A DNA stretch of 32,000 nucleotides from Thermococcus kodakarensis KOD1 (GCF_000009965.1 NC_006624.1:1050001-1082000); one strand, 5' to 3'. Positions 3,771-25,117 are shown, counted from the first letter of the stretch. A program made the numbers and translations. The notes: generated from the sequence alone by a model not told the origin.

Positions 3771-3829
3771 CGGCAATGATGAGATTGGCCTTTGGGGTCA
3801 TGGATGCCCGGGATCGACGGCCTGAGCCT
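3771..3829 (+). ncRNA. Candidate C/D-box sRNA (2'-O-methylation guide)
   Basis: Perfect C box ATGATGA at 3776-3782 and D box CTGA at 3822-3825, with a 39-nt spacing. GGC(3772-3774)/GCC(3826-3828) forms a terminal stem. TTTTTAAG TATA at 3744-3751 places the TSS at about 3772-3776. The internal D'/C' boxes are degenerate (GUCA / UGGAUG). Confidence 0.4.
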
Positions 3830-3896
3830 CCGTCAAATTTTTAAGCCCCCCTCTTTTAGTAACCTTCGGTATTCTAAAGGAGCTGGGGGTGAGAAA

Positions 3897-5219
3897 ATGC
3901 CAGTGATCGAGGAGGTGGCCACCAAGAGCTTCGAGAGGATTGGAATGCACTCCCACATAAGGGGCCTTGGCCTCGACGAGAACGGAAAGGCGAAGTTCAT
4001 GGCCGACGGAATGGTCGGACAGATAAAGGCAAGGGAAGCGGCCGGAATAGCCGTTGAGCTCATAAAGCGCGGCAAGCTCGCGGGAAAGGGAATCCTTCTC
4101 GTTGGCCCAACCGGAAGCGGTAAGACGGCGATAGCCATGGGAATCGCGAGGGAGCTCGGTGAGGACGTCCCCTTCGTCCAGATAGCGGGCAGTGAGATCT
4201 ACTCCGCGGAGGTCAACAAGACGGAGTTCCTCAAGCAGGCCATGAGGAGGGCTATAGGCGTCAGGATAAGCGAGGAGAGAAAGGTCTACGAGGGCGAGGT
4301 AAAGTCCATCGAGGTCAGGAAGACGAGGCACCCCTTCAACCCGTACGTCGAGATTCCGGAGAGCGTCATCATAACCCTCCGCACGAAGGACGACGAGAAG
4401 ACGATAAGGGCGGGAAGGGAGATAGCCTACCAGCTCATGGAGATGGGCGTCGAAGAGGGCGACGTTATCCAGATAGACGCTGAGACAGGTAGAATATCGA
4501 AGGTAGGAACCACGAAGGAGGAAGAGGGGCTCTTCTTCAAGAAAAAGGTCAACCTTCCGAGCGGGCCAGTTCTGAAAATCAAGGAGTTCACCTACACGGT
4601 CACCCTACACGACCTCGACGTTGCCAACGCCAGGGGCAACATCTTCGGTCTGCTCTTCAGCACCGGTGCGGAGATAAGCGATGAAGTGAGGCAGAGAGTT
4701 GATGAGACCGTTAAGAAGTGGATCGAGGAGGGCAGGGCCACACTCGTTCCCGGTGTTCTGTTCATAGACGAGGTTCACATGCTCGACATCGAGGCGTTCT
4801 CGTTCCTCGCCAGGGCCATGGAGAGCGAGCTCGCGCCGATACTAATCCTGGCTACCAACCGGGGCAGAACGAAAATAAGGGGCACCGACATCGAGGCGCC
4901 ACACGGAATCCCGATTGACATGCTCGACAGGCTCCTCATAATCAACACCGAGCCGTACAAGAAGGAGGAGATCAGGGAGATAGTCAAGATAAGGGCGAAG
5001 GAGGAGAAGATAGAGGTCAGCGAGGAGGCGATAGAGTACCTCGCGGAGCTTGGGGAAAAGACCAGCCTAAGGTATGCAGTCCAGCTTCTCGCACCGGCGA
5101 GCGTTTTAGCTAAGGGTGGCAGGGTCGAGAAGGAGCACGTCGAGAGGGCCAAGGAGTACTTCGCCGACATAAAGAGGAGCATCCAGTTCGTTGAGAAGCT
5201 TGAGGGCATGCTGCAGTGA
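3897..5219 (+). CDS. RuvB-like / TIP49-family AAA+ ATPase (Pontin/Reptin homologue)
   Basis: HSHIRGLGLD, Walker A GPTGSGKTAIA, Walker B LFIDEVHMLD, and an OB-like insertion domain between the Walker motifs. ATG at 3897 is preceded by GGGGGTGA SD. The upstream in-frame extension from 3792 is rejected. Confidence 0.9.
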   Translation: MPVIEEVATKSFERIGMHSHIRGLGLDENGKAKFMADGMVGQIKAREAAGIAVELIKRGKLAGKGILLVGPTGSGKTAIAMGIARELGEDVPFVQIAGSEIYSAEVNKTEFLKQAMRRAIGVRISEERKVYEGEVKSIEVRKTRHPFNPYVEIPESVIITLRTKDDEKTIRAGREIAYQLMEMGVEEGDVIQIDAETGRISKVGTTKEEEGLFFKKKVNLPSGPVLKIKEFTYTVTLHDLDVANARGNIFGLLFSTGAEISDEVRQRVDETVKKWIEEGRATLVPGVLFIDEVHMLDIEAFSFLARAMESELAPILILATNRGRTKIRGTDIEAPHGIPIDMLDRLLIINTEPYKKEEIREIVKIRAKEEKIEVSEEAIEYLAELGEKTSLRYAVQLLAPASVLAKGGRVEKEHVERAKEYFADIKRSIQFVEKLEGMLQ

Positions 5220-5608: not shown

Positions 5609-5650
5609 CGCCAAAAACTTTTTATGGCCTAATTGTTACTTCAGTATGAG

Positions 5651-6340
5651 ATGATAACAATGCGGACTAAAGATTGGAAGTCAATAAGCGGGACAATCCT
5701 CGTACTCATTGCGGTAGCTTTAGTGGTAATCTCGGCGGGATGTTCAAAAGGCCCGAACACCGAAAACACACCCACGAGCACGAGTGTTGAGAACACAAGT
5801 ATGTCCTCTACCCAAGACAGCACACTCATGTTGAAACTCAACGGCACGTTCTCGGGCCAGCTTAGCGTTCCAGCATCACTAGCCGAGGAAGTCAGGGAGT
5901 ACTTCGAGAAGAGCAACACCACCCTGTACTCCTTCGAAGTTGAAGTTGTGAATGATAACGGCAAGCCCCAGGCGAGCATTACACTGTATCTCCTGAAAAT
6001 CGTGCCGCCGTTTGAGCCGAAAGACTTTGAAGTTCTCATTAATGGCAAACCCGTTTCCAGAGAAACATACGTACCTGTCTACGAGGATGTTCCCGTGGTC
6101 ATTGAGTACTCTGGAAAACAGTACCCCAGACAGTTGACTGCAAAAGTCAAAGAGAAGTCCCGTGCAAGGTTCACAGCCAAAAAGTCCGAACTTGATAAGC
6201 ATCCCGGCGAGACCATTAAACTAGGAACAGTGGAGGGTTTTGCCCTGCTCGCTCACGTGAACGATGCCGGGAACTACACCTTCATAGTTAAGGGGAGAAA
6301 CGGCGAAGAGCTTGCAACAGGCGGACTTGTTGTTGGTTAA
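5651..6340 (+). CDS. Hypothetical secreted lipoprotein
   Basis: Signal peptide ending in the lipobox-like VISAGCS, a Thr/Ser-rich linker and four N-x-S/T sequons. The start could be ATG 5651 or 5660; the track start at 5633 is TTG. Confidence 0.7.
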   Translation: MITMRTKDWKSISGTILVLIAVALVVISAGCSKGPNTENTPTSTSVENTSMSSTQDSTLMLKLNGTFSGQLSVPASLAEEVREYFEKSNTTLYSFEVEVVNDNGKPQASITLYLLKIVPPFEPKDFEVLINGKPVSRETYVPVYEDVPVVIEYSGKQYPRQLTAKVKEKSRARFTAKKSELDKHPGETIKLGTVEGFALLAHVNDAGNYTFIVKGRNGEELATGGLVVG

Positions 6341-7326
6341 CCTTCCATAATTTTCTCCAGCTTCCTGCACAGGTTCAGATGGAAGAGAAACTCCCTTTGA
6401 AGCTCCCCATTCCTGAAGATAAGCTTGAGCTCGTTCAGCCTCTTCTTCCCTCCGAACTCGCCGTAAACCAGTGTCCCGTTCACCTCAACCAGCCCCAAAA
6501 CCGCCGCGAGGTTGAAGATGAGCGTCCTGAGCTGGTAGGCGGAGACCTCGTGGGTGCCGAGCCTTGCAGTTGGATATTCAAAGTAGAAGTATTCGAGACC
6601 CTCTATTCTAGCAACGTCGGTTATGGCAAGGTCGGCCGTCAGAAAGACCACCATCGCCGGGCTCATCTCGTCGTAGTGCTTGAGGGTCTTCACTATGCGC
6701 TCGTCGTTGTTGTGACCCTCTCCGTAGCGCTCAACAACGATTATCCTATCCCTCAGGGCCTCAAACTCCTTTAGGGCTATGTACGCGGCTTTTCTGGCCT
6801 TCTTCGTCCTCCTGTTGCTCAGCTCACGCAGGAGATGGCCGTTTTTGACTGTGCTCATAATCTCGTGAAGGTAGTTTGAGCGGTACTTGTAGTTCATGGC
6901 GCTCTCTATCTCGTTTTTGACGTCCTCGGCGACGACGATCTGGTATCCATCGAGGGGACGATAGTTGGATATAAAGCGGTGGTAGAATATGTTGGTGTCG
7001 GGAGAGAACACAACACCTTTTCTAAGGATACGGTACAGCTCCAGCATTTCCTTAAAGTCCTCTATGTTGTCGTACGTGATCACTCCCGAGGAGATAAACG
7101 CCTCGTAGAAGTCGGAGTATGAAGGCAGTTCTGGGTGCCTGACATGGAAGTCCCGCTTTTCAGCCTGGACTTCCAGCAGATAGCCCCTCTCTGTGGGGCT
7201 GGCTGTAAAGAGAAGCGTGCCGTAGATTGGAAAACTCACCCGGATTTTTTCCCGTTCTTGGAGGAGGTTGATGAGTATCTGAAGTTCGGGCTTTTCGATA
7301 ACCACTTCACCCGCCATTTCCGTCAC
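6337..7326 (-). CDS. PIN-domain nuclease-like protein (329 aa) with uncharacterised N- and C-terminal domains
   Basis: Canonical PIN acidic positions in context: VVFSPDTNIFY (D110), VKNEIES (E139), NNDERIVKTL (D208), VVFLTADLAITD (D232/D237). The start (7326 or 7317) overlaps the upstream gene's end. Confidence 0.75.
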   Translation of the reverse strand: MTEMAGEVVIEKPELQILINLLQEREKIRVSFPIYGTLLFTASPTERGYLLEVQAEKRDFHVRHPELPSYSDFYEAFISSGVITYDNIEDFKEMLELYRILRKGVVFSPDTNIFYHRFISNYRPLDGYQIVVAEDVKNEIESAMNYKYRSNYLHEIMSTVKNGHLLRELSNRRTKKARKAAYIALKEFEALRDRIIVVERYGEGHNNDERIVKTLKHYDEMSPAMVVFLTADLAITDVARIEGLEYFYFEYPTARLGTHEVSAYQLRTLIFNLAAVLGLVEVNGTLVYGEFGGKKRLNELKLIFRNGELQREFLFHLNLCRKLEKIMEG

Positions 7327-7780
7327 CCAGGAAGTTCTTGAGAACCTGCATGTGCGTTGGGAGCATCATGTAAGGCCTGTTCGGGAACTGGACGTCGAGA
7401 AGGGCCATGTAGAGTATCTCCCTAACGTTCGACTCCCGGCTGTGGATTATCGCGGCGGCAACCAGCGCCTTCCTCCCGGAGGTCATGTTGAGGACGATGT
7501 CGCCGTCCTTCTCCTTCAGCTTGGAGAAGAGGTTTTTCAGAACCTTATCTGCCTCCTTGAAGTCGTCATCTGGTATGACGAGGGTCTTCACTTCGGGAGA
7601 GAAGCCGTATGCCTCTGAGATCGTCTTTATTGCCTCCGTTATTTTCGGCAGGCTGTGGGAGTATCTCCTTTCGGTTACGATATAAACTTCCTTTGGGCGT
7701 TCTCCCCTCATAACGGAGGCGTAGTATGTGTTCACCAGCGCCCAGGGCGTTCTCCCGAGCAGAGCTATGTGGACGCTCAT
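7307..7780 (-). CDS. Minimal standalone CARF-like (Rossmann-type ligand sensor) protein, 157 aa
   Basis: Alternating beta/alpha pattern. Motif after strand 1 is HIALLGRTPWALVNTYY. Motif after strand 4 is DIVLNMTSGRKALVAAA, which is DxTGG[RK]-like. ATGA start/stop overlap with the upstream gene at 7777-7780. Confidence 0.6.
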   Translation of the reverse strand: MSVHIALLGRTPWALVNTYYASVMRGERPKEVYIVTERRYSHSLPKITEAIKTISEAYGFSPEVKTLVIPDDDFKEADKVLKNLFSKLKEKDGDIVLNMTSGRKALVAAAIIHSRESNVREILYMALLDVQFPNRPYMMLPTHMQVLKNFLGDGNGG

Positions 7781-8238
7781 TCGACCATCACCATCCCGTA
7801 GAGGACGCTTTCCGAGAAGTCTATCTCAACCAGTGAGCTTATCTCAATTCCAATAGCGTCTATGCTCGGCCTCACCTTCTCAGGCATCCTGCATGGCTCA
7901 CCGTGCTCAAATGGACAGTCGTCGCAGAGGTTGCAGTTGCCTGGGAAAAGGGCCATTGCGTAGAGCTTCCCCTGTTTAAAGAGCTCTGCTTCCTTCTTCA
8001 AAAGCCACAGGAGAACCTTCCTCTTCTCGTTTTCGAAGTCGTTCATATCGACCTCAAACTTCACGAGAAGGGCTTTTTTGAAGGATCTGACCCACTCTTT
8101 TGCTTCCTTCCAGTCGGGGGCGTATGGCGGACAGCTCGGCCTCTTTCCGTACATCGGACAGGTCCTGCACTTCCAGACAGGCCTCGGTGAGACGGTTATC
8201 TTCTCCGCCGGAATTTCCTTCTCCCACACCACGCGCAT
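7777..8238 (-). CDS. Cys-rich predicted metal-binding protein, DUF2284-like
   Basis: CRTCPMYGKRPSCPPY and CNLCDDCPFEHGEPC cysteine clusters. ATG at 8238; the track start at 8247 is GTG. First gene of the three-gene operon. Confidence 0.75.
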   Translation of the reverse strand: MRVVWEKEIPAEKITVSPRPVWKCRTCPMYGKRPSCPPYAPDWKEAKEWVRSFKKALLVKFEVDMNDFENEKRKVLLWLLKKEAELFKQGKLYAMALFPGNCNLCDDCPFEHGEPCRMPEKVRPSIDAIGIEISSLVEIDFSESVLYGMVMVE

Positions 8239-8439
8239 CGTGCTCACAAAAAGATGTTAGGACGAAGAAGGTTAAAACGTTTCCCCGTCGGATTTCCAAC
8301 AGTTGATTATTTCTCGGTGCAACTATCCTTTGAGATGCCACTAACTACGGAAACTTCACCCCAGCTCGACTTTGGCATATCCCTTCAGAATTTTGACCTT
8401 TTCCAAAACCTTTTTACCCTCAATGACGTAACTAAAACC

Positions 8440-8988
8440 ATGAAGAGGCCGCTCCCGTTACTGCTGGCCTTGCTGGTTGCCACTGCAGGGTGCATGTCCG
8501 AAGGGGGTGTAAAGATGGAAAAGACCCTTGAGGTGGGCTCCGTCTTCCACGACGGGGAGTTCATACCGAAGGAATACACCTGTGAGGGCGACGATACGAA
8601 CCCGCCGATTTACATCGGCAACATCCCGGCCGAGGCCAAAAGTTTGGTCATTATCGTAGATGACCCCGACGCGCCAGCTGGAACCTTTACCCACTGGATA
8701 GCCTGGAACATACCGCCCGTTGGGGAGATACCTTCATGGGTGCCTAGGAAACCCGAAACCGACGAGCCGTTCCACATCGTCCAGGGAAAGAACGACTTCG
8801 GGAGGATAGGATACAACGGCCCCTGCCCGCCGAGGGGACACGGGGTTCACCACTACCACTTCAAGGTCTACGCCCTTGACACGGAACTTAAACTCGAACC
8901 CGGCTCCTCAAGAAAAGAGTTAGAAAAGGCCATGGAAGGCCACGTGATAGCCTGGGGAGAGGTCGTTGGGCTCTACGAGAGGAAGTGA
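8440..8988 (+). CDS. PEBP/YbhB-YbcL family protein, exported lipoprotein form
   Basis: Signal peptide MKRPLPLLLALLVATAGC, then DDPDAPAGTFTHW and GYNGPCPPRGHGVHHYHFKVYALD, which are PEBP signatures. The long N-terminal extension from 8254 is rejected. Confidence 0.9.
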   Translation: MKRPLPLLLALLVATAGCMSEGGVKMEKTLEVGSVFHDGEFIPKEYTCEGDDTNPPIYIGNIPAEAKSLVIIVDDPDAPAGTFTHWIAWNIPPVGEIPSWVPRKPETDEPFHIVQGKNDFGRIGYNGPCPPRGHGVHHYHFKVYALDTELKLEPGSSRKELEKAMEGHVIAWGEVVGLYERK

Positions 8989-15295: not shown

Positions 15296-15307
15296 GGAAA
15301 AGAAAAT
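15296..15307 (-). terminator. Oligo-T terminator candidate for the mbx operon
   Basis: The minus strand reads CCCCATTTTCTTTTCC directly after the mbxN stop. Confidence 0.4.
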
Positions 15308-15314
15308 GGGGAAG

Positions 15315-15968
15315 TCACTCCTTCTTCTCCTCAGCCTTGGGCCCTTCCTTTTTCTCCGCGGGTTTGGCCGCGGGCTTCGCCGGCGGCTTCGGCGGCCGGA
15401 GGCCGTAGCCGAGTATCTTGAACTGTATCGTTGAGCCGTCGCGGAGGTAGTAGGTTACCTCCCTCGTCTCTTTGTTGAACTTTATCCTCTCAACCGGGAA
15501 GCGGTAGTCGTTGAACTTCTCGTTGAGCTCTCTAACCTTGTCGGGGTGGATCGGGACCCAGTCGTAAAGCTCCAGATCTTCTTCAAGGCCGCCAGTGGTC
15601 AAGTAGTAGTTCTCGCTGAAGCCGAGCGCTCCCGTCGGACAGACGTCAACGCAGAACTGGCAGAAAGTACACCTGCCGTAGTCCACCTTCGGGTGAGGCC
15701 TGGTGGCGATGTGGCCGTTCACTTCTATCCAAGTCATCTCTATTGCCCTTGCCGGGCATATCTGGCCGCAGAAGTTACAGCCCACACACTTCTTCCAGTC
15801 GAGTGTGTGGAAGCCCCTGTACTTTGGTGCCGGCTCTATCTTCTCGTAGGGTATCTTTATTGTGACGGGCTTCTTGAAGAGGTACTTGATGCCCATCCAG
15901 GGCTTGATGAAGGACTTCTTGAGCTTGACCTTTTCCTCACCAACGACTCTCGCGGGCATCTTCATCAC
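15315..15968 (-). CDS. mbxN: Mbx/MBS subunit N (NuoI-like 2x[4Fe-4S] ferredoxin subunit)
   Basis: CVGCNFCGQICP and CTFCQFCVDVCP motifs. Last gene of the operon. It has a Pro/Lys/Ala-rich C-terminal tail. Confidence 0.88.
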   Translation of the reverse strand: MMKMPARVVGEEKVKLKKSFIKPWMGIKYLFKKPVTIKIPYEKIEPAPKYRGFHTLDWKKCVGCNFCGQICPARAIEMTWIEVNGHIATRPHPKVDYGRCTFCQFCVDVCPTGALGFSENYYLTTGGLEEDLELYDWVPIHPDKVRELNEKFNDYRFPVERIKFNKETREVTYYLRDGSTIQFKILGYGLRPPKPPAKPAAKPAEKKEGPKAEEKKE

Positions 15969-17158
15969 CTGTCTATGTCCGGCGGACAGTTGTCAAGGGT
16001 CTTCAATATGACCGGGACATCAGCGAGGCGCGCTCCCTTCAGGAGCTCTTCAAGTACCGTAACACCGTGGCTCTGGCTTGGCCCCCTGACGTGGACGCGG
16101 TAGGGCTTGTGTGTTCCGTCGCTGACAACGAAGGCCCCAAAGTCGCCCTTGGTGCTCTCTACGTGGGCGTAGGCCTCCCCAGCTGGAGGCTTGAACCTCG
16201 GGAGGGCCTTAAGGCGGGCGTCCTGAACCATGTAAGGCCCGCTCGGCGGCCCCATGTCGAGGAGCTGTTCGAGTATGTAGAGGTCCTGCTCCATCTCGTA
16301 CCTTCTGACGAGAACCCTCGCGAGGCTGTCCCCTTCCTTGAGGACTGGAACCTCGAAGTCGAGCTGGTCGTAGAGGTAGTACGGGTCGTCCTTCCTGACG
16401 TCGTAGGGAACGCCGACTGCTCTGAGGTTCGGCCCGGTTACCGCGTGCTTAAGGGCGAACTTCTTGTCCATAACACCGACTCCCTCAGTCCTCTCGAACA
16501 TGATGTAGTTGTCAAAGAGTATCTCGTCGAAATCCTTGAGCTTGCCCTTTAGGTACTCGACGGTGTCCCTGAGCTGGCGGAGCCACTTGTCTCCAGGTAT
16601 GTCCCTCCTCACGCCGCCTGGAACGGTGTAGATGTGGTAGACTCTGCCTCCGGTGAGTTCTTCGTACAGACGCATGAACCTCTCACGGTAGGCTGCCGCC
16701 CACTGGCCGGCGGTGTAGAGGCCTATCTCGTTTCCAAAGCCCATTATCCAGAACATCCATGCGCTGAGCCTTGCCATTTCCAAGACGACCGTCCTTATCC
16801 AGATGGCCCTCTCTGGAACCTCCCAGCCGACGATCTCGTCAACGGCCATTGAGTAGATGTTCTCTGGGACATCGCTCTCGGGAACACAGATACGGAGGAG
16901 CAGGGCGATGTTGGTGAAGTATGGCCTCTGCTCGGCGAGCTTCTCAAAACCCCTGTGGAGGAAGCCTGGATTGACTATAGCTTTCTCGACCCTGTTGCCG
17001 TCCATCTTCAGGATTATGCTGAAGTTCTCCGTTGCCATGTGCTGTGGACCAAAGAACAGCTCGTAGGTGTCCTTGTCTATCGGGTGCAGGTACATGTCGT
17101 GGGCCTTCGCCTCTTCCCTAAGCTCTCTCGGAACTTCCAAATTAGCCATGATCATCAC
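15965..17158 (-). CDS. mbxL: Mbx/MBS catalytic subunit L (NuoD / [NiFe]-large-subunit-like, Ni-site cysteines partly lost)
   Basis: Similar to group-4 hydrogenase large subunits, but the N-terminal RxCGxC is RICVPES and the C-terminal DPCxxC is DNCPPDIDR. Only one Cys remains in each pair. Confidence 0.88.
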   Translation of the reverse strand: MMIMANLEVPRELREEAKAHDMYLHPIDKDTYELFFGPQHMATENFSIILKMDGNRVEKAIVNPGFLHRGFEKLAEQRPYFTNIALLLRICVPESDVPENIYSMAVDEIVGWEVPERAIWIRTVVLEMARLSAWMFWIMGFGNEIGLYTAGQWAAAYRERFMRLYEELTGGRVYHIYTVPGGVRRDIPGDKWLRQLRDTVEYLKGKLKDFDEILFDNYIMFERTEGVGVMDKKFALKHAVTGPNLRAVGVPYDVRKDDPYYLYDQLDFEVPVLKEGDSLARVLVRRYEMEQDLYILEQLLDMGPPSGPYMVQDARLKALPRFKPPAGEAYAHVESTKGDFGAFVVSDGTHKPYRVHVRGPSQSHGVTVLEELLKGARLADVPVILKTLDNCPPDIDR

Positions 17159-17159
17159 C

Positions 17160-17756
17160 TCATATCACGTAGTTAGTCTTGCTCTCGTCATACCTATCGA
17201 AGTCCTCACCGTAGATTTCCTTCACGTAGGAGAGCATGTTGAAGTCCTTCCTGAGCGGGTGCTTCTCGTACTCCCTCGGCTCCAGGATGAACGGCCCAAG
17301 TCTCGGATTGCCCTCGAAGATTATTCCGAAGAACTCATGTGCCTCCCTCTCGTAGGTCTCAGCAACCGGCCAGATGTCCATGACCGTCGGGAGCTTCGCC
17401 TCGTCCCTTGGAACCCTTGTCTTCACGAACGCGTGAACGCTCTCGCTTACGCTCCAGAGCTGGTAGTTGACCTCGAACTGGCCCTCCTTGAGCCAGTCCA
17501 CGACGCTTATCTGCATGAGCATCTCGAACTTCTCGCTTGCTAGCTCAAGGAATTCGTGTATTCTATCCGCTGGAACGATGAACTTGATGCGTCTCTCGCG
17601 GATTACCTCTCCCTCGGCGTAGGGGGCCTTTTCAAGGAGCGCCTTCACGAGCTTTCCTTCCTTTGTGTCCGGAAGGGTCGGCTTCTCCTCCACGGTTGCC
17701 TCCTCCTGAACCTTCTCCTCGACTTTGGGCTTCTCGTTCATATCCATGCGAGCCAC
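17160..17756 (-). CDS. mbxK: Mbx/MBS subunit K (NuoC-like)
   Basis: AETYEREAHEFFGIIFEGNP, a NuoC signature. Glu/Lys-rich N-terminal extension. Confidence 0.85.
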   Translation of the reverse strand: MARMDMNEKPKVEEKVQEEATVEEKPTLPDTKEGKLVKALLEKAPYAEGEVIRERRIKFIVPADRIHEFLELASEKFEMLMQISVVDWLKEGQFEVNYQLWSVSESVHAFVKTRVPRDEAKLPTVMDIWPVAETYEREAHEFFGIIFEGNPRLGPFILEPREYEKHPLRKDFNMLSYVKEIYGEDFDRYDESKTNYVI

Positions 17757-18337
17757 CTCCTTGCATCCTTCTCACGCCATCCTTCGCCGAACAGCTCATC
17801 CTGGTTCTTCTTGTACCACTCGTAGTTCTCCTTGTACCTCTTCCAGCCGTCGGCTTCACCGTTCTCAATCTTGCGCATTATCTCCATTATTCCGTCCATG
17901 ACAGCTTCCGGCCGCGGCATGCAGCCGGCTATGGCAACGTCAATCGGTATGTACTTGTCGAGCTGTTTAACCACGTTGTAGGAGTCCCAGTAGACGCCAC
18001 CGTTTATCGGACAGGAGCCGTGGGCGAGTACGTACTTCGGATCCTGCATCATCTCGTAGGTTATGATTATCCTCTTGAGTGTCTTCGGCGTGACGTAGCC
18101 CGTGATGAGGAAGAGGTCTGCCATCCTGGGGGCTGGGTTGGGCATTATTCCGAAACGCTCGAAGTCGTACCTGGCGGTGGCTAACGGCGGCATCTCGATA
18201 CCGCCACAGCCGGTACAGAAGGCCACTATCCAGAGGCTCTTCTTTCTAGCCCACCTGAAGAGGGGCTCGAAGAGCTGGAACTCCTTCAGTTCGTAGTGTA
18301 TTACATCACCGTTCTGCATCTCGCTCATCACCATCAC
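17738..18337 (-). CDS. mbxJ: Mbx/MBS subunit J (NuoB-like [4Fe-4S] subunit)
   Basis: Cluster ligand contexts FCTGCGGIEM, HGSCPINGG and IAGCMPRPE. Confidence 0.88.
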   Translation of the reverse strand: MMVMSEMQNGDVIHYELKEFQLFEPLFRWARKKSLWIVAFCTGCGGIEMPPLATARYDFERFGIMPNPAPRMADLFLITGYVTPKTLKRIIITYEMMQDPKYVLAHGSCPINGGVYWDSYNVVKQLDKYIPIDVAIAGCMPRPEAVMDGIMEIMRKIENGEADGWKRYKENYEWYKKNQDELFGEGWREKDARRWLAWI

Positions 18338-18338
18338 C

Positions 18339-19232
18339 TCACATCGTCAGGAGGACGGCTATTATTCCGATTATCGTGGGCCACTTCCAGAAGAACTTCG
18401 CCGCTTGGTCAATGGTGAACCTCGGGTAGATGCTGGCTATGAAAATCGATATGAACAGCACTGCAATCTGCTTGATGAGGAGTTCGAGGAGGTTGCTCGC
18501 TCCACCGAGGAACAGCACAGCGAAGAACGCTGTTTCAGCAAAGAGCTGAACTGCGTGCTGGGTGAAGAGCAGTGCCGCGTGCTTTCCACCGTACTCAACC
18601 ATCGGACCCATGGAGATTTCCGCCGGTGCTGGAATGATGTCAAACGGCTCGAGACCTAGCATTGCCTGGAAGACTATGTCAAAGACTATCAGCGCTAGGA
18701 GCAGTGCTGGGACCGTTATGCTCCATCCATGGGCCTGCTGGAGAGCAACTATATCGTTCAGCTTGAAGGTTCCCCAGTGCTGGATGAGGGCTATCAGAGC
18801 TAGGCCGTATGGGAGCTGCATGGCAACCATTGTGAGGAGTCCACGCTGGACACCGACCGCTGAATACGGGTTTCCTGAGCTCATTGCACCGAGCATTATT
18901 CCGAGCATCGGGACCTCAAGGAGGTAGGCAACGACGATGAGGTCTGCGTTGGTGCTGAACAGCTGGAAGTTGGCTATTGGTATGAAGAGGAGCGCTGCTA
19001 TGCTGGCTCCGAGGGCAAACACGGGGCCGAAGTCATAGATGAAGCCGTGGCTGACGCTCTCCTTCTTGCCGAGCAGTTTAAGGGTGTCTATGATGGGCTG
19101 GTATATCGGGGGTCCAACCCTTCTCTGTATCCTCGCCATCGCCTTTCTCTCGATACCCATGAAGATGAAGCCCATGAAAGTCGCGTAGATGAGTATCCCA
19201 ATCGTCTCAAGTATGAGCTTCCAGTCTATCAT
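18339..19232 (-). CDS. mbxM: Mbx/MBS subunit M (NuoH-like membrane subunit)
   Basis: 297 aa with about 8 TM helices. RRVGPPIYQPIIDTLKLLGKK is a NuoH-type loop. Confidence 0.85.
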   Translation of the reverse strand: MIDWKLILETIGILIYATFMGFIFMGIERKAMARIQRRVGPPIYQPIIDTLKLLGKKESVSHGFIYDFGPVFALGASIAALLFIPIANFQLFSTNADLIVVAYLLEVPMLGIMLGAMSSGNPYSAVGVQRGLLTMVAMQLPYGLALIALIQHWGTFKLNDIVALQQAHGWSITVPALLLALIVFDIVFQAMLGLEPFDIIPAPAEISMGPMVEYGGKHAALLFTQHAVQLFAETAFFAVLFLGGASNLLELLIKQIAVLFISIFIASIYPRFTIDQAAKFFWKWPTIIGIIAVLLTM

Positions 19233-21083
19233 TCACAGCACCCCCCAGAGAGCCAGGATTACGAGTACTATGGCCAGATACCATGAGTAGGCCTGCACGT
19301 TCCCGTTGTAGAACCCTTCCCTCAGTGTGTCAGCGAAGTCCTCGCTGAGCTGGGCAATCCTCTCGTAGAATTTGTCGAAGCTGTACCTGAGCCAGAACGC
19401 TAAGGCTTCTTTGAGCGGAAGGTAGAAGTTCCTCCTTATGCTGAGGTTGAATTCCTCGGTTACGGGGTTACCCGACTGGTATGTGTTGGTAACCGGTATT
19501 CTCCTTGCCTTCGCGCCGTAGAGGTAGATGAGACCAGCTATGGCCAGGCCAACCACGAGCAGGAGGGCAACGGTCAGGGCGTTGTAGGTTCCGGTCTGAG
19601 TAACGAGCTTGTAGTAGTTGCCGCCCACGACCTCTCCACCGAGGGCCTTGTTGAGGTAGTTCGTGACAAGTCCCGGAGCTATTCCGAAGACGATGTTCGG
19701 GATTGCTAGTATTGCCATCGCTATGAGGAGCGGTAGCGGGGCTTCCTTCACATCTTCAAGGTCGCTGGGCCTCTGGCCGAACCACACCGCGTAGAGGAAC
19801 CTGACGACGTAGGCAAAGGCCAGCGCGCTTCCGAGGAATATGGCTCCAGCTACAAGGGGCATGTGGGCGCTGATAGCGGCCTCGTAGATTAGCCACTTGC
19901 TGGCGAAACCAGCCATCGGCGGTATTCCTGCGAGGCTGAGGACTGCTATGAGTCCCATCGCGAAGGTAAAGGGCATCTTCTCAGCTAATCCGCCGAAGTC
20001 CTTGAACTGAGTCTTGCCTGTCTGGAGGATTATAGCGGCTGTGACGAGCCAGAAGAGACCCTTGAAGACGGCGTGGCTGAGGACGTGGAAGAGACCTCCA
20101 GCGAAGCCAAGCCCCGTGCCAAGTCCGAAGGCGAGGAGGATGTAGCCAACCTGACCGACTGACGAGTACGCGAAGAGCTTCCTTATGTCCTCCTGCAGAA
20201 CGGCTAAGAAGCTGGCGACGACGACCGTTATAGCTCCTATCCACGCTATTATGTACGCAAAGGTGAGGTGGCCGTGGAAGGTTCCGAGGGCGTAGTAGAG
20301 CTTGGCACCCATCAGGATGTAGAGGAGCAGGAATCCATAGGCCCCTGCCTTGCTGAGGGCGCCGCTGAAGAAGGTCGTGTAGCTCTGGTCGGTCTCGCTG
20401 TAAGCTCCTGGTGCCCAGACGTGGAGCGGCCAGGCACCAGCCTTAACGCCGAACGCCGTGAGGAACAGAACGAAGATTAGAGCGGTCTCACCCTTGCTGA
20501 TTGAGCCGAGCATCGCGTCCATGTAGAGGGCCTGCCTTATTGAGTCAAAGTCGAGGGCCCCTGTCTTAGCGTAGATAAGCGCTATTGCCAGAAGCATAGC
20601 GTAGGCTCCGATAACGCTCAGCACGAAGTACTTGAGGGACTCGTGCCTGTTCCTCTTGAGAACCATCATGAAGCTGGCGAAGGTCATAAGCTCCCAGAGC
20701 AGGAAGAAGCTGACGAAGTCCCAGCTGAGGAAGACGCCAAGGACTCCAGTGTAGCTCATAAGGGCGAAGAGCCAGTCGTAGCCGTTCTTGCTTGTTGAGA
20801 CCATGCCGAATGCCATAGCCAGGCCGACTAGGGAAGCTATGGCGGCAAAGTACCAGTTCAGCATTCCCAGAGTGAAGGTTACCTTAAACCCGCTCACGGT
20901 CATCTGGTAAGTTATCGGGTTGTTCGGATTGTTGACGATAGTCGGGTAGAGCTTGGCGAGGAACGCCAATGGAGTGGCTGCACCGATGACTCCGATAAGC
21001 TCGCGGACTCCCTTCACGTTAATCAGCCAGGCGAGCACTCCAGCAAGGAGAGGAGTAAAGAGGATAATCGGTATTTCGTTCAT
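19233..21083 (-). CDS. mbxH': Mbx/MBS subunit H' (second MrpD/NuoL-like antiporter-type subunit)
   Basis: 616 aa, polytopic, antiporter-like with WAPGAY and FAYSSVGQVGY motifs. It abuts mbxM and overlaps mbxH by 4 nt. Confidence 0.85.
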   Translation of the reverse strand: MNEIPIILFTPLLAGVLAWLINVKGVRELIGVIGAATPLAFLAKLYPTIVNNPNNPITYQMTVSGFKVTFTLGMLNWYFAAIASLVGLAMAFGMVSTSKNGYDWLFALMSYTGVLGVFLSWDFVSFFLLWELMTFASFMMVLKRNRHESLKYFVLSVIGAYAMLLAIALIYAKTGALDFDSIRQALYMDAMLGSISKGETALIFVLFLTAFGVKAGAWPLHVWAPGAYSETDQSYTTFFSGALSKAGAYGFLLLYILMGAKLYYALGTFHGHLTFAYIIAWIGAITVVVASFLAVLQEDIRKLFAYSSVGQVGYILLAFGLGTGLGFAGGLFHVLSHAVFKGLFWLVTAAIILQTGKTQFKDFGGLAEKMPFTFAMGLIAVLSLAGIPPMAGFASKWLIYEAAISAHMPLVAGAIFLGSALAFAYVVRFLYAVWFGQRPSDLEDVKEAPLPLLIAMAILAIPNIVFGIAPGLVTNYLNKALGGEVVGGNYYKLVTQTGTYNALTVALLLVVGLAIAGLIYLYGAKARRIPVTNTYQSGNPVTEEFNLSIRRNFYLPLKEALAFWLRYSFDKFYERIAQLSEDFADTLREGFYNGNVQAYSWYLAIVLVILALWGVL

Positions 21084-22567
21084 GCTCCCACCCCCATTAG
21101 AGGAACGTTCTTGATGTAGTTGGCCACGTTAAAGATGTCCTGACCGGCCTTTTGGACGATAGTCCAGACGTCGTTCGGGTAAACGCCTATGACTATTATC
21201 AATGCAGCGAGGAAGATTGCTATGACGCCTATGGCGAAGTTCTCCCTGACCCTCTCGCCGCCTTCGACGAACCATATCGTATGGATCAGCCTGAGGTAAT
21301 AAACCGCCTCGACGACGCTGGCACCGAGGATGAGGGCGACGCTCCAGGAGTAGCCAGCCTCGACACCGGCGAGGAGTATCCTGACCTTGCTCCAGAAGAT
21401 GTTGAAGAGCGGTATTCCGACGGCGGCGAGGGAACCTATGGTGAGTGTTAAAGCCGTTAAAGGCATCCTCTTGCCGAGTCCCTGGAAGTTCTCGATGGTG
21501 GTCCCGCCGAGGGCAACGCCGACGTATCCGACCGTGAGGAAGAGAAGGGCCTTAACGATGGCGTGGTTGACCATGTGAAAGACTCCCGCGTCAACGCCTG
21601 CCTGAGTGCCGAGGGCGAGGGCAAAGGCAATCATTCCCACCTGACTGATCGAGGAGTAGGCTATCATCCTCTTGACGTCCTTCTGTCTCAGTGCCGAGAA
21701 CTCGGCAACGACTACTGTCAAGGTGGCCATTATTATGACCAGCTTAAGGACGCCGCTCCATCCGTTTGCGTTCTGGAGTATGTAGAGGAGCCTTGCTATC
21801 GCGTAGAGGCCAGCTTTGACGACGAAGGCTGAGAACATAACGGTTATCGGGTGCGGTGCGGCCTGGTAGGCATCCGGCGCCCAGGCATTGAGCGGGAACA
21901 GTTCAGCCTCGACTGCCAGGCCGAAGATTATCAGTGCGAGGCCGACCTGTGCAACAGTCGGGTCAATAGCTCCCGCAAGCTGAGCGAGGTGAGCCATGTT
22001 GAGGGTTCCAGTCGCCCCATAGATGAGGGCAACGCCGATGAGGAAGAAGCTTGAGCCTATTCCACCGAGGACGATGTACTTCATTGAGGCTTCAGCCGCT
22101 TCGCCGGTCTTGTTGTAGGCGGTGAGGGCGTAGGCAGTTATTGAGGTTATCTCCATGAAGACGAACAGGTTGAAGAGGTCTCCCGTCGCTATCATTCCCG
22201 TCGCACCGAGCATCAGCAGGAGGAAGAGCATGGCGTACTTGTCAACCGGTTCGACGGTGACTGCTCTGAAGCTGAAGAACGCCATGAAGAAGCTGATTAC
22301 TGCTATTATGAACACGAAGAGCGCCGCAAAGTGGCCGATGTAAAGGTTAATGCCGACTGGCGGCTTCCAGCCACCTGCCATGACTATTATCGGCTTCCCT
22401 GTGGAATAGACCTCGTTTGCCACCCAGCCGGCTATTGCAGTCTGGAGTGCGGTGATGAGCACTAGGTAGCCCATCACGGCCTTCCTTCCAAGTCCCTTTA
22501 TCAGCGGGACGAAGAATGCGCTGATGAGCGGTAAAGCTATGAGGAGTGAAGCGTACTGACCGTTCAT
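21080..22567 (-). CDS. mbxH: Mbx/MBS subunit H (MrpD/NuoM/N-like antiporter-type subunit)
   Basis: 495 aa, polytopic, with NAWAPDAY and IAYSSISQVG motifs. Confidence 0.85.
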   Translation of the reverse strand: MNGQYASLLIALPLISAFFVPLIKGLGRKAVMGYLVLITALQTAIAGWVANEVYSTGKPIIVMAGGWKPPVGINLYIGHFAALFVFIIAVISFFMAFFSFRAVTVEPVDKYAMLFLLLMLGATGMIATGDLFNLFVFMEITSITAYALTAYNKTGEAAEASMKYIVLGGIGSSFFLIGVALIYGATGTLNMAHLAQLAGAIDPTVAQVGLALIIFGLAVEAELFPLNAWAPDAYQAAPHPITVMFSAFVVKAGLYAIARLLYILQNANGWSGVLKLVIIMATLTVVVAEFSALRQKDVKRMIAYSSISQVGMIAFALALGTQAGVDAGVFHMVNHAIVKALLFLTVGYVGVALGGTTIENFQGLGKRMPLTALTLTIGSLAAVGIPLFNIFWSKVRILLAGVEAGYSWSVALILGASVVEAVYYLRLIHTIWFVEGGERVRENFAIGVIAIFLAALIIVIGVYPNDVWTIVQKAGQDIFNVANYIKNVPLMGVGA

Positions 22568-22908
22568 CCTCTCAACCTCCTTATTTCCTCAACGTTAAGG
22601 GTTCCGTACTTCTCATAGATCAAAATGGCAGCGCTAAGGGCCATAGCAGTTGTGGCAACACCGATAACTATTGCCGTGAGGACGAGAGCCTGCGGGATTG
22701 GGTCAACGGCCTGGTTCCACTTTATTCCCTCGCTCAGAATGGGTGCGCTCTTCCCTGAGACGTAGCCAACGCTTATCAGGAGAAGGTTGACGCCGGTCTC
22801 CATGATGCTCAGGCTGATGAGTATCTTCATGAGGTTCTTCTTGACGAGGACCCCGTAGAGGCCTATGAGGACGAGTGCTATCGCGCCGAAGTAGTAGACT
22901 GAAATCAT
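22564..22908 (-). CDS. mbxG: Mbx/MBS subunit G (MrpC/NuoK-like)
   Basis: 114 aa, 3 TM, 4-nt overlaps on both sides. Confidence 0.8.
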   Translation of the reverse strand: MISVYYFGAIALVLIGLYGVLVKKNLMKILISLSIMETGVNLLLISVGYVSGKSAPILSEGIKWNQAVDPIPQALVLTAIVIGVATTAMALSAAILIYEKYGTLNVEEIRRLRG

Positions 22909-23633
22909 TCTCTCACCTCCTCCTTGAGCATGTTGTCAACGATACCGCTGAGCTCCGTTCCGACCTTGATGCCGATTATCGTGTAGATTATCGGTATGAA
23001 GCCGCCGCTGAAGAGTCTGCCGATGTTGTCAGTGCCCCAGTGCCAGGTCTGCCATATCCAGTCGAAGAGGAAGTAGCCGCCGATTGCAAGCCCGATGAGG
23101 CCGACGAGGACGTAGCTCATTCCAGCTAGACCTTCGACCTTTTCAAAGGCCTTGTGGGGAATCTCGTAGATCGTGAACGCCATGTACAGCAGCAAGAATG
23201 CCGTGGCTATCGTCGCTCCACCTGGGAAACCTCCACCAGGGGTGAGGTGTCCGTGGATGAATATGTAGGCACCGAACATGACTATGAACGGGAAGAGAAG
23301 CTCCGCACCAGTTGTGAGGACGACGGAACCCTCGACCTTAGCTGTTCTCTCCCTCTTCTTCCTCCAGAGAAGGGCAGCGACACCAGTCGAGGCTATGAAG
23401 AGAACGGTGACCTCACCGAGGGTATCGAAACCACGGTAGTTAACGACTATCGCCGTTACCGCGTTAACGGCTCCCGTCTGTTCCTTAACGTGCTGGAGGT
23501 AGTAATGGCCAACGAGCATCTTGTCCTCGCCGAATGGGACTCCAGCGAGGCCCTGGGCCAGCCAGTAGCCAACTATCAGGAGTGTGATTATCGCGAGCGA
23601 CCTCTTGAGTATGCTCACCATCTCACCCACCAC
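22905..23633 (-). CDS. mbxF: Mbx/MBS subunit F (MrpB-like)
   Basis: 242 aa, polytopic. The start is GTG 23633 or ATG 23621 and overlaps the mbxD end. Confidence 0.8.
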   Translation of the reverse strand: MVGEMVSILKRSLAIITLLIVGYWLAQGLAGVPFGEDKMLVGHYYLQHVKEQTGAVNAVTAIVVNYRGFDTLGEVTVLFIASTGVAALLWRKKRERTAKVEGSVVLTTGAELLFPFIVMFGAYIFIHGHLTPGGGFPGGATIATAFLLLYMAFTIYEIPHKAFEKVEGLAGMSYVLVGLIGLAIGGYFLFDWIWQTWHWGTDNIGRLFSGGFIPIIYTIIGIKVGTELSGIVDNMLKEEVRE

Positions 23634-23899
23634 CCTGGCTTCTCCTCTTCCTCAGTCTCAAAGCGCTGGGTTCTCTTAACGGCGAAGATAACTATAGCGC
23701 CGCTCAGTGCGGCACCTATGGCAGCTTCGGTCATTGCCACATCGGGAGCCTGAAGCATGAAGAACAGGATCGACGCGAACAGGCTCACCGCGGCCATACC
23801 GACTGCTGCAGCAAGCAGATCCCTCCACTCAACTGCGAGTATTGCCGATATGATCATGAGGGCAACTACTATGTATTCAATACAGGTTATACAGTTCAT
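23615..23899 (-). CDS. mbxD: Mbx/MBS subunit D (small MrpA-C-terminal/DUF4040-like membrane subunit)
   Basis: 94 aa, 3 TM; assigned by its position in the operon. Confidence 0.75.
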   Translation of the reverse strand: MNCITCIEYIVVALMIISAILAVEWRDLLAAAVGMAAVSLFASILFFMLQAPDVAMTEAAIGAALSGAIVIFAVKRTQRFETEEEEKPGWWVRW

Positions 23900-24288
23900 T
23901 CCTCACCACCCTCCTTTGAGGCTTCGGTTTCGGCTTTTTCCTTGGCCTCCAGGTGCTCGCGGTACTTGTCAACCACACTGCCCTGCCAAAGCGGGATTCC
24001 GCTCTTGTAGGCTGCTCTGATAAGCGCGTGGGCGCTTATCGGGTTGGTCAGCAGAAGGAAGAGCGCTATGACGACGCTCTTGGTGAACCAAGACCACGAG
24101 AGGCCGTCGCCAACCGCCCAGAGGCCGACTCCCACCATGACGCCGAGGGATCCGAGGGTGGCGCTCTTCGTTGATGTCTGCATCCTGTTGTAAACGTCTG
24201 GCATTCTGATGAGACCCAGGGCTGAGAGGAAGTAGAAGAACGTTCCAATTAAAACCAGAGCTTCACCAAGTGCTGAGAGCACGTTCAT
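23896..24288 (-). CDS. mbxC: Mbx/MBS subunit C (MrpG-like)
   Basis: LGLIRMPDVYNRMQTSTKSATLG is an MnhG/MrpG signature. Confidence 0.82.
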   Translation of the reverse strand: MNVLSALGEALVLIGTFFYFLSALGLIRMPDVYNRMQTSTKSATLGSLGVMVGVGLWAVGDGLSWSWFTKSVVIALFLLLTNPISAHALIRAAYKSGIPLWQGSVVDKYREHLEAKEKAETEASKEGGEE

Positions 24289-24539
24289 AGACCTCCCTCC
24301 ATGTAGCGTGCGAACGCTATGACACCGCCGAAGGCCAGGATTGCATAAACCAGAGCAACGTCGAGGAAGATGATGCGCTTGTAGTAGAGCGCGAAGAGCA
24401 CCATCAGTCCCGTTGTTATCGTGGTCATGATGTCCACTGCCACCAGCCTGTCGGGGGTCGTTGGGCCGACCATGAAGCGGTACATGCTGAGCAGTGTTGC
24501 TATCGCTATGAGTGCCAGATAAACACCTATCCCTATCAT
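24285..24539 (-). CDS. mbxB: Mbx/MBS subunit B (MrpF-like)
   Basis: 84 aa, 3 TM, with GPTTPDRLVAVD, an MrpF-type motif. Confidence 0.8.
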   Translation of the reverse strand: MIGIGVYLALIAIATLLSMYRFMVGPTTPDRLVAVDIMTTITTGLMVLFALYYKRIIFLDVALVYAILAFGGVIAFARYMEGGL

Positions 24540-25069
24540 CCGAAGATCACCTTCAGGAATTTTTCAAAGGGTCTTGTGATGTTCTCGGAGGCCTTCTCAA
24601 CGTGAACCTCCTCGCTTTCAGCGTGGAGAACCTCGTCCGGAACCCATATCCAGTGGATGAAGTAGTCGTCCCCATCGACGTCGAGGGTTATCGTACCCGG
24701 CGTGAGGGTTATTGAGTTTGCCAGTGAGAGTTTCCCAGGGTTTGTTTTGAGGATGGTCTTGCAGTGAACTATCCCCGGCCTTATCGGCCTCTTGGGGTGG
24801 AGAACCCTGTAGGCAACGTCTAAGTTTGCCATGATCATCGCCCACAGGAAGTAGGGAGCGTAGGCTATCGCGTAGGCGACCCTCTTCGGATGGAGGTTCG
24901 CCAGTCCTCTCGTTGTGAATATTGGGTATGTTATCGCCGCCACTATCGCTGAGAGAACGAAGCCGAAGATAAGCTCCTGCTGGTCGAGGCTTGCCGTCAG
25001 TGCCAGCCATATTAAAAACAGGATTATCAGGGTGTATAGGTACCTGCTAATCTTACTCGCTTCCTCCAT
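24536..25069 (-). CDS. mbxA: Mbx/MBS subunit A (MrpE-like)
   Basis: 177 aa with two N-terminal TM helices and NSITLTPGT, an MrpE-type motif. GGAGGG SD lies upstream. First gene of the operon. Confidence 0.82.
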   Translation of the reverse strand: MEEASKISRYLYTLIILFLIWLALTASLDQQELIFGFVLSAIVAAITYPIFTTRGLANLHPKRVAYAIAYAPYFLWAMIMANLDVAYRVLHPKRPIRPGIVHCKTILKTNPGKLSLANSITLTPGTITLDVDGDDYFIHWIWVPDEVLHAESEEVHVEKASENITRPFEKFLKVIFG

Positions 25070-25117
25070 TCATCAACCCTCCAGAGAGTCTCAGCAGTTC
25101 TGGACTGCTAACCGAGG

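Follow-up and report, generated by a model that had tools for sequence, protein, structure and literature searches.

Nearly everything that is understood about CARF sensors concerns their role as receivers of cyclic oligoadenylates (cOA) made by Cas10. In Csm6 and Csx1 (CARF-HEPN) and in Can1, Can2 and Card1, a CARF domain controls a nuclease of the HEPN or PD-(D/E)xK type; these proteins are fused, linked to type III CRISPR-Cas and have a known cOA input. CARF domains are also found together with PIN nucleases: the 2014 census (Makarova 2014) attaches a type III-A flag to PH0177 from Pyrococcus horikoshii and to a protein from Methanotorris igneus, and SiRe_0806 from S. islandicus REY15A, a fused protein of ~417 aa that was filed there as 'CARF_HTH_PIN', is represented by the PDB entries 9jxw and, with cyclic tetra-adenylate (cA4), 9jxx; a paper describing its activity was not found in the literature. 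Crn1 (Sso2081, Sis0455; CARF_m13), finally, is a CARF protein that stands alone. Here we describe how a locus of Thermococcus kodakarensis KOD1 compares with these systems. Within the 32-kb window of the genome that was analysed (window coordinate + 1,050,000 = genome coordinate), a stand-alone CARF gene, TK1203, is followed by a separate PIN gene, TK1202, and preceded by TK1204, which encodes a cysteine-rich DUF2284 protein.

The initial annotation, made from the sequence alone, had regarded this arrangement as not characterised, which proved to be incorrect. TK1203 is listed by its locus tag in the 2014 census as a member of cluster 10 of 'pfam09670_only_CARF', with the label 'no_toxin' and no CRISPR type, together with ten other proteins from Thermococcus and Methanoculleus (Makarova 2014); the label implies that the census did not regard the PIN gene next to it as an effector. 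PADLOC contains the models CARF_m1--CARF (PDLC01971) and CARF_m1--CARF_PIN (PDLC01973), which, judged by their names, follow the 2020 CARF classification, and TK1203 and TK1202 belong to this CARF_m1 clade without any difference from it. In addition, there is the structure of SiRe_0806 with cA4. The locus tags TK1202-TK1204 were not found in the main texts of the literature searched. The domain assignments themselves are, therefore, not new, and TK1203-TK1202 is a split, CRISPR-unlinked variant of a catalogued family. The present analysis adds that the pairing with PIN is obligate, that colinear fusions exist, that DUF2284 falls outside the module, and that the pair is associated with a HAD hydrolase; it further adds a clade-specific pocket signature and the link to an organism without Cas10. 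We consider it fairly probable that TK1203 and TK1202 form a two-subunit, ligand-gated PIN RNase that works without type III CRISPR in T. kodakarensis.

A CARF protein paired with a PIN nuclease

TK1203 (7307..7780, minus strand) encodes a stand-alone CARF protein of 157 aa, the predicted ligand sensor. It matched PDLC01971 over the full length (model positions 1-155 of 156, E 1.3e-76) and also the N-terminal part of PDLC01973. The AlphaFold model, with a predicted local distance difference test score (pLDDT) of 83, showed the strand-helix alternation of a Rossmann-like alpha/beta fold of the CARF type, and a Foldseek search of the PDB with this model returned CARF proteins for all of the top 44 matches (best E 7.4e-6), with Cam1, Csm6, Can2, Card1, Crn1/Sso2081 and Csa3 at the top. 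These results confirm the first assignment of TK1203 as a CARF domain protein. Both hallmark motifs that had been read from the sequence are present and, in the model, lie behind the expected strands: motif 1, LLGRTPWALVNTYY (residues 7-20), follows strand 1 (residues 2-8) and motif 2, NMTSGRKA (residues 98-105), follows strand 4 (residues 94-98). They are the most conserved stretches of the TK1203 family; G9, R10, W13, N17 and T100-S101-G102-R103-K104 were invariant in 44 sequences and conserved across 78 loci. A third conserved region is the C-terminal tail RPYMMLPTHMQVLKNF (residues 135-150), in which P136, M139, P141 and Q145 were invariant in the alignment. Despite this conservation, the tail had a pLDDT below 50, and its counterpart in fused CARF-PIN proteins is located immediately ahead of the linker.

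TK1202 (6337..7317, minus strand) encodes a three-domain PIN protein of 326 aa, the predicted RNase effector. It matched Pfam PIN_4 with 24.7 bits (cut-off 21.9) at residues 110-245 of the 329-aa open reading frame (ORF) and PADLOC CARF_m1--CARF_PIN at model positions 223-461 of 465 (E 5.5e-18). The AlphaFold model (pLDDT 94.9) comprises an N-terminal alpha/beta linker domain (residues ~1-100) with a conserved ELQILLNLL helix, the PIN core (~102-245) and a C-terminal alpha/beta domain of ~75 aa (~250-326). With this model, Foldseek found SiRe_0806 as best structural neighbour, followed by the PIN domains 3ix7, 2dok (EST1A/SMG6) and Rrp44, in line with the PIN fold proposed before; a sequence search of the PDB with the PIN profile gave nothing meaningful. 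The acidic tetrad D107, E136, D205 and D229 did not vary in either of two alignments, one of 16 and one of 62 sequences. Thus, the four acids of the catalytic set named in the initial annotation are present, but their numbers (D110, E139, D208 and D232) are three too high since TK1202 probably starts at ATG 7317, as outlined below. The domain and the intact tetrad confirm TK1202 as a PIN nuclease; RNA is its putative substrate.

To survey the gene neighbourhoods, 80 loci with a TK1202-like PIN gene were analysed, 78 of which were informative while two had no upstream DNA (in the following, loci are numbered L and proteins P). The CARF gene was located directly upstream of the PIN gene and on the same strand in 78 of the 78 informative loci, which come from six or more lineages of archaea (Thermococci, Archaeoglobi, Methanomicrobiales, Thermoplasmata, Hel- and Hadarchaeota). 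The junctions are mostly 4-nt overlaps, with gaps of 2-6 nt in some loci, and ~650 nt lie between the two genes in two Archaeoglobi/Geoglobus loci (L033 and L035). PIN homologues of ~325-345 aa were found in Thermococcus, Palaeococcus, Archaeoglobi, Methanomicrobiales and MSBL1, and further in Thermoplasmata, Hel-, Had- and Bathyarchaeota; no Pyrococcus was among the 120 PIN matches listed. When 1.8 billion representative proteins were searched with the TK1203 profile, no more than 254 clusters at 50% identity were obtained, mostly stand-alone proteins of ~160 aa, but also around eleven fusions of ~485-565 aa and one of 701 aa. In the fusion P0223 (510 aa), positions 4-156 of the CARF hidden Markov model (HMM) aligned with residues 5-158 and positions 5-335 of the PIN HMM with residues 179-509 (E 7.5e-110); judged by these alignments, P0223 is a Rosetta-stone fusion, colinear with TK1203 plus TK1202. 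A sequence search of the PDB with another fused protein, P0296, found Crn1 alone. Because of the adjacency in all informative loci and the colinear fused proteins, TK1203 and TK1202 are regarded as a functional pair, as had been suggested for the operon at the outset, and CARF plus PIN is confirmed as a real two-gene module with obligate pairing.

How does this pair relate to the known systems? The fused proteins PH0177, P0372 (M. igneus) and P0268 (Methanocaldococcus villosus) have the domain order CARF, linker, PIN and C-terminal domain in common with TK1203 plus TK1202. The type III-A fusions share the T-P-G-R-K loop and a P-x-x-I-P tail and were found by the TK1203 profile at E 1e-18, but each of them is one polypeptide, its gene follows csm1-csm5 directly, and the strand-1 loop reads G-[ST]-S-P. 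The PIN HMM made from the TK1202 relatives did not report P0268, indicating that the effector halves are distant. SiRe_0806 (PDB entry 9jxw was confirmed by sequence to be the S. islandicus REY15A protein) was matched by the TK1202 model with a Foldseek E of 6.5e-8 over ~330-344 columns and also by the TK1203 model (rank 32). Apart from being fused, it differs in that the query-normalised TM-score to the TK1202 model was 0.53, and hhalign against its single sequence was not significant for TK1202 (probability 1.9%) and marginal for TK1203 (57.6%). The structural match therefore stands alone, and SiRe_0806 shares the architecture as a distant relative. Csm6/Csx1 and Can1/Can2/Card1 resemble the pair in the logic of a CARF domain controlling a nuclease, and their CARF folds are top structural matches, but the nuclease is not PIN. 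The layout, a small upstream gene overlapping a downstream PIN gene, is reminiscent of VapBC; however, TK1202 has 326 aa and two extra domains compared to a VapC of ~130 aa, and TK1203 is a CARF protein and not a DNA-binding antitoxin.

Based on its size, TK1203 could also be a Crn1-type, stand-alone ring nuclease that degrades cOA, without the PIN protein as partner. Crn1 was the best CARF sequence match of TK1203 in the PDB (phmmer, E 0.004), the NCBIfam model cas_Crn1 matched with E 0.0019, and in the alignment with Sso2081, T11/S11 falls on the S of G-T-S-P and K104 on the K of G-G-R-K, the catalytic Ser11 and Lys106 of that enzyme. The similarity is, however, weak: cas_Crn1 scored 17.9 bits, far under the cut-off of 125. 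Moreover, Crn1 is not paired with a PIN gene, whereas the obligate PIN adjacency and the end-to-end fusions argue for a sensor-effector pair, and there is no known producer of the substrate in KOD1. A ring nuclease is therefore highly improbable.

For the sensor-effector pair we propose the following model. TK1203 and TK1202 would be the halves of a CARF-PIN effector that is split into separate polypeptides. TK1203, a minimal CARF protein and most likely a dimer, would bind a small nucleotide ligand in a pocket made up of two loops, the invariant G-R-[ST]-x-W...N behind strand 1 and T-[SP]-G-R-K behind strand 4. Its C-terminal tail, predicted to be disordered on its own, probably docks on the N-terminal linker domain of TK1202; the tail is a good candidate for the interface because it is conserved, has a low pLDDT and directly precedes the linker in the fusions. 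With the ligand bound, the PIN RNase (D107/E136/D205/D229) would be turned on or off. A physical interaction of the two proteins and gating by the ligand are thereby predicted. Both genes would be transcribed from the promoter of TK1204, each with its own Shine-Dalgarno-like site, and the module would act independently of CRISPR in T. kodakarensis.

Layout and transcription of TK1204-TK1203-TK1202

The products of TK1204, TK1203 and TK1202 were exact matches to BAD85393, BAD85392 and BAD85391 in a sequence comparison. Three overlapping ORFs are present on the minus strand at the coordinates given in the initial annotation, i.e. 7777-8247 (156 aa from GTG), 7307-7780 (157 aa) and 6337-7326 (329 aa from GTG), and the overlaps described there are real. 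The deposited starts of TK1204 and TK1202 are ATG 8238 (153 aa) and ATG 7317 (326 aa). TK1204 and TK1203 share 4 nt, ATGA, at 7777-7780, and the stop codon of the CARF gene (TGA, 7307-7309) lies inside the PIN ORF, 11 nt from ATG 7317 and 20 nt from GTG 7326; compared with the CARF gene, the PIN gene is read in the +1 frame. Motifs of the type GGTGAT precede the start codons of both genes. The Shine-Dalgarno-like GGTGATGG (7785..7792, minus strand) is located 4 nt upstream of the CARF ATG within the 3' end of TK1204 and may, judged from its position, play a role in translational coupling of TK1204 and TK1203. The second Shine-Dalgarno-like site, GGTGA (7323..7327, minus strand), is located 5 nt upstream of the PIN ATG within the 3' end of TK1203. 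Since GTG 7326 falls within this GGTGA, ATG 7317 appears to be the likelier start of the PIN gene.

Published differential RNA sequencing (dRNA-seq) data list a primary transcription start site (TSS) assigned to TK1204 at 8247..8247 on the minus strand (TTS1058247_-, Jaeger et al. 2014, supplementary file 2, PMC4247193). It is the sole TSS mapped on this strand between TK1201 and TK1205 and lies 9 nt upstream of the ATG of TK1204; for TK1203 and TK1202, no TSS is listed (PMC4247193). A TATA-like element, TTTTAA, with GAAA before it, can be read from the sequence at 8269..8274 (minus strand), ~25 nt upstream of the mapped TSS; its position fits the published TSS, and it is a candidate for the operon promoter. 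The TSS falls exactly on the G of GTG 8247, with which the 156-aa ORF of TK1204 begins (8238-8247). Therefore, the TK1204 mRNA could be leaderless and translated from GTG 8247 instead of ATG 8238.

The single mapped TSS for TK1204-TK1203-TK1202 supports the view, taken before from the packing of the genes, that they are co-transcribed. The normalised transcript levels are ~84 for TK1204, ~4 for TK1203 and ~13 for TK1202 (PMC4247193 supplements), so the three genes are a transcription unit, but with a sharp, ~20-fold drop in level past TK1204. This suggests attenuation, processing or differential stability inside the operon. At the other end, TK1202 overlaps with the convergent gene TK1201 by 4 nt (6337-6340), so that a terminator between the operon and TK1201 would have no space. 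TK1201 (5633-6340) encodes a protein of 229-235 aa without a match in Pfam, the N-terminus of which has a hydrophobic stretch and, behind it, a cysteine.

The +1 frame and the fused homologues of ~485-530 aa raise the question of whether TK1202 and TK1203 are the remains of a fused CARF-PIN gene, disrupted by a frameshift; the original KOD1 annotation reads 'conserved, flame shift'. This wording goes back to fused homologues, e.g. PH0177 (485 aa), with which the genes were compared. However, the split is conserved in the 78 informative loci from distant lineages, with intact ORFs and variable junctions (gaps, an intervening ORF), the Shine-Dalgarno-like motifs are found at both genes, and the conserved motifs are kept in both proteins. 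Because the split is conserved, a pseudogene and, likewise, a programmed frameshift were ruled out; we consider the chance that the pair is a pseudogene to be negligible.

The DUF2284 gene and HAD hydrolases next to the pair

TK1204 (7777..8238, minus strand) encodes a cysteine-rich, predicted metal-binding protein of 153 aa. The translation contains the patterns CxxC-x8-C and CxxCxxC-x7-C, and Pfam PF10050 (DUF2284) was matched with 118.6 bits (cut-off 25, E 2.9e-34); both the family and the two cysteine clusters had been recognised correctly. The further claim that DUF2284 is a component of the module did not stand up to the survey. In KOD1, the genes are under one TSS and TK1204 overlaps with TK1203 by 4 nt, and in ~22 of the 25 Thermococci loci with upstream DNA a DUF2284 gene adjoins the CARF gene or nearly so, as would be expected if TK1204 were a genuine third subunit, e.g. 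a redox or metal sensor feeding the CARF-PIN switch. Outside the Thermococci, however, DUF2284 was adjacent to CARF in 0 of ~50 loci. In Pyrococcus furiosus, the orthologue, 66% identical to TK1204, is located alone among unrelated genes, with neither CARF nor PIN nearby. Further, orthologues from Pyrococcus, Thermoplasmata and bacteria are 59-73% identical to TK1204, far above the conservation of CARF or PIN, and the TK1204 transcript is ~20 times higher than that of TK1203. In some Thermococcus loci, a gene for a membrane protein even intervenes between DUF2284 and CARF. A third subunit is, therefore, quite improbable, and DUF2284 was rejected as a member of the module on the basis of its phylogenetic distribution and the stand-alone Pyrococcus orthologue; TK1204 is probably a co-transcribed, lineage-specific neighbour with an independent function.

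The bacterial DUF2284 proteins with 59-61% identity to TK1204 are from Hippea jasoniae and from a metagenome-assembled genome of the Desulfuromonadales. The unusually high conservation of DUF2284 between the domains of life suggests horizontal transfer or strong constraint. The membrane-protein gene mentioned above was found directly upstream of CARF and on the same strand in five Thermococcus loci (L009:9062-9529, L012:63-503, L017:3102-3557, L018:2786-3235 and L019:4103-4576); it encodes a hydrophobic protein of ~150 aa with around four predicted membrane helices and sits between DUF2284 and CARF in four of the five, while the contig of L012 ends before any DUF2284 gene.

Outside the Thermococci, the pair has a different neighbour. 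A gene for a HAD-superfamily hydrolase (Pfam HAD_2, E 1.9e-25; the nearest NCBIfam model, TIGR02253, was below the cut-off) is located directly downstream of PIN and on the same strand in ~47 of 52 non-Thermococci loci (L032-L081, e.g. L037:10975-11670; also L084:6128-6889). Two Thermococci loci have a HAD hydrolase gene upstream of DUF2284 (L027:8217-8861 and L029:3806-4468), and a gene of this kind was not found in the KOD1 window. HAD phosphatases fused to CARF have been shown to act as type III effectors (PMC12715507). By analogy, a HAD phosphatase may be a third component of the CARF-PIN module; that it recurs in the non-Thermococci loci is reminiscent of the CARF-HAD effectors and suggests that the module is wider.

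The region between PIN and HAD is enlarged in some loci. In L084 (5569-6153) and L085 (1524-2108), both Archaeoglobus-like, there is an extra ORF for a protein of 194 aa without a match in Pfam; L084 also has an McrBC gene ~3 kb upstream. In Methanoculleus frigidifontis (L038:12600-16830), ~6 kb are inserted that encode a large protein with many tandem repeats of 78-81 nt (26-27 aa).

Relation to CRISPR and the possible ligand

In agreement with the initial annotation, neither a CRISPR array was found in the window nor a cas family among those nearby genes to which Pfam assigns a family. The genes around the operon are of other kinds: TK1199 (3792-5219) encodes a TIP49/RuvB-like ATPase, TK1205 (8335-8988), which is divergent from TK1204, a PEBP-family protein, and the region 15300-25100 contains a cluster for a membrane-bound respiratory complex (Complex1_30kDa/49kDa, Oxidored_q6 and MnhE-like subunits); none of them is defence-related. 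The related loci were surveyed by array detection, clustering of conserved neighbours and, for selected loci, precomputed Pfam calls. A CRISPR array within 10 kb was found in 0 of 80 loci; a k-mer match in L038 that resembled an array turned out to be the 78-81-nt coding repeats of the large repeat protein. The conserved neighbours are housekeeping genes (TIP49, PBP, Cbf5), and the synteny of the CARF-PIN pair is kept within Thermococcus and within Methanoculleus.

The initial annotation had seen in the pair a nuclease module encoded in trans and responsive to cOA or another nucleotide. As a type III accessory effector, TK1203 would sense cyclic tri-, tetra- or hexa-adenylate (cA3/cA4/cA6) made by Cas10 and activate the PIN RNase during infection. 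Support comes from the relatives: P0268 is encoded directly after cas10/csm1-csm5, so that fused relatives take the position of Csm6 in a type III-A operon, the type III-A flags for PH0177 and the M. igneus protein point in the same direction, the nearest structural neighbours of the TK1203 model are CARF proteins that bind cA4 or cA6, and the distant SiRe_0806 was crystallised with cA4. In KOD1, however, the cas genes form one cluster, exclusively of types I-A and I-B (PMC3737340), and neither KOD1 nor Methanoculleus bourgensis has an entry under Cas10 (Makarova 2014, genome table). The pair itself differs from type III accessory CARF effectors in three respects: it is without an adjacent cas gene or array, without Cas10 in the host according to the literature, and consists of two polypeptides. 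In addition, the strand-1 loop is an invariant G-R-[ST]-x-W in the split clade and its closest fusions but G-[ST]-S-P in the CRISPR-linked fusions, which hints at another ligand or another binding mode. A role as type III accessory effector is, therefore, unlikely, and cOA as the ligand is doubtful in KOD1. The absence of Cas10, together with the genus-wide conserved synteny and the lack of an array nearby, indicates that the ligand is probably not a cOA made by Cas10.

The same context is compatible with a housekeeping nuclease for RNA processing or turnover, with CARF as a constitutive structural or regulatory subunit, a core metabolite and not an alarm signal as ligand, if any, and HAD, in lineages that have it, in the same pathway. 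The CARF gene is present in all ten complete Thermococcus genomes of the 2014 census (Makarova 2014). The conserved synteny, the housekeeping genes nearby, the low and apparently constitutive expression, and the HAD hydrolase directly downstream of PIN in most non-Thermococci loci would all fit such a role. Against it speak the close and distant relatives in type III-A operons or in loci that resemble defence islands, and the patchiness of a family that is small, with its 254 clusters, and has no Pyrococcus among the listed PIN matches; besides, no RNA-processing pathway is known to need such an enzyme. Taken together, we regard a housekeeping nuclease as rather doubtful.

One of the loci that resemble defence islands is metagenomic. 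In L089 (9234-11458) and L090, the fused CARF-PIN protein P0259 (485 aa) is encoded next to a PD-(D/E)xK/Cas4-like gene, near genes for DUF499, an SNF2 helicase and a protein of 824 aa without a match in Pfam; the locus looks like a defence island without a recognisable Cas10.

Several observations weigh against a ligand-gated, split CARF-PIN effector that works without type III CRISPR. At least T. onnurineus has a type III-A system and, thus, cOA input is possible in some hosts. The profile match of TK1203 comes from PADLOC CARF_m1, whereas the scores were below the curated Pfam cut-offs (18.8 bits versus 27 for Csa3_N and 18.3 versus 24.6 for CARF_Card1), and the CARF models of NCBIfam, too, matched solely under their curated cut-offs. 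The transcripts of TK1203 and TK1202 are low compared to TK1204 and, therefore, their co-transcription could be read-through beyond an attenuator. Finally, ST0035, the only CARF-PIN protein found to have been tested, bound cA4 weakly and was not activated (PMC6546367).

In sum, the two-subunit, ligand-gated PIN RNase is the reading that we favour for T. kodakarensis, and it leads to a broader and more tentative proposal. The split CARF-PIN pair, with HAD in most lineages, is possibly a vertically inherited, CRISPR-independent second-messenger switch of Euryarchaeota that senses, with the clade-specific G-R-[ST]-x-W loop in its CARF pocket, an endogenous nucleotide not made by Cas10 and gates an RNase for stress or dormancy. 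Such a ligand could be cyclic di-AMP (c-di-AMP), an oligoadenylate that is linear or carries a 2',3'-cyclic phosphate, or a molecule made by a cyclase not yet recognised. The practical value of the finding is below the first estimate, since the family is already catalogued and the DUF2284 component was not upheld. But the split form persists in genomes without Cas10, and the question arises of what a CARF protein senses without a type III system, a question that is testable in the genetically tractable T. kodakarensis. If the proposal is true, the pair would point to a new nucleotide signal in archaea without type III systems or, alternatively, would represent CARF signalling as it was before it became associated with CRISPR, or as it is after that association.

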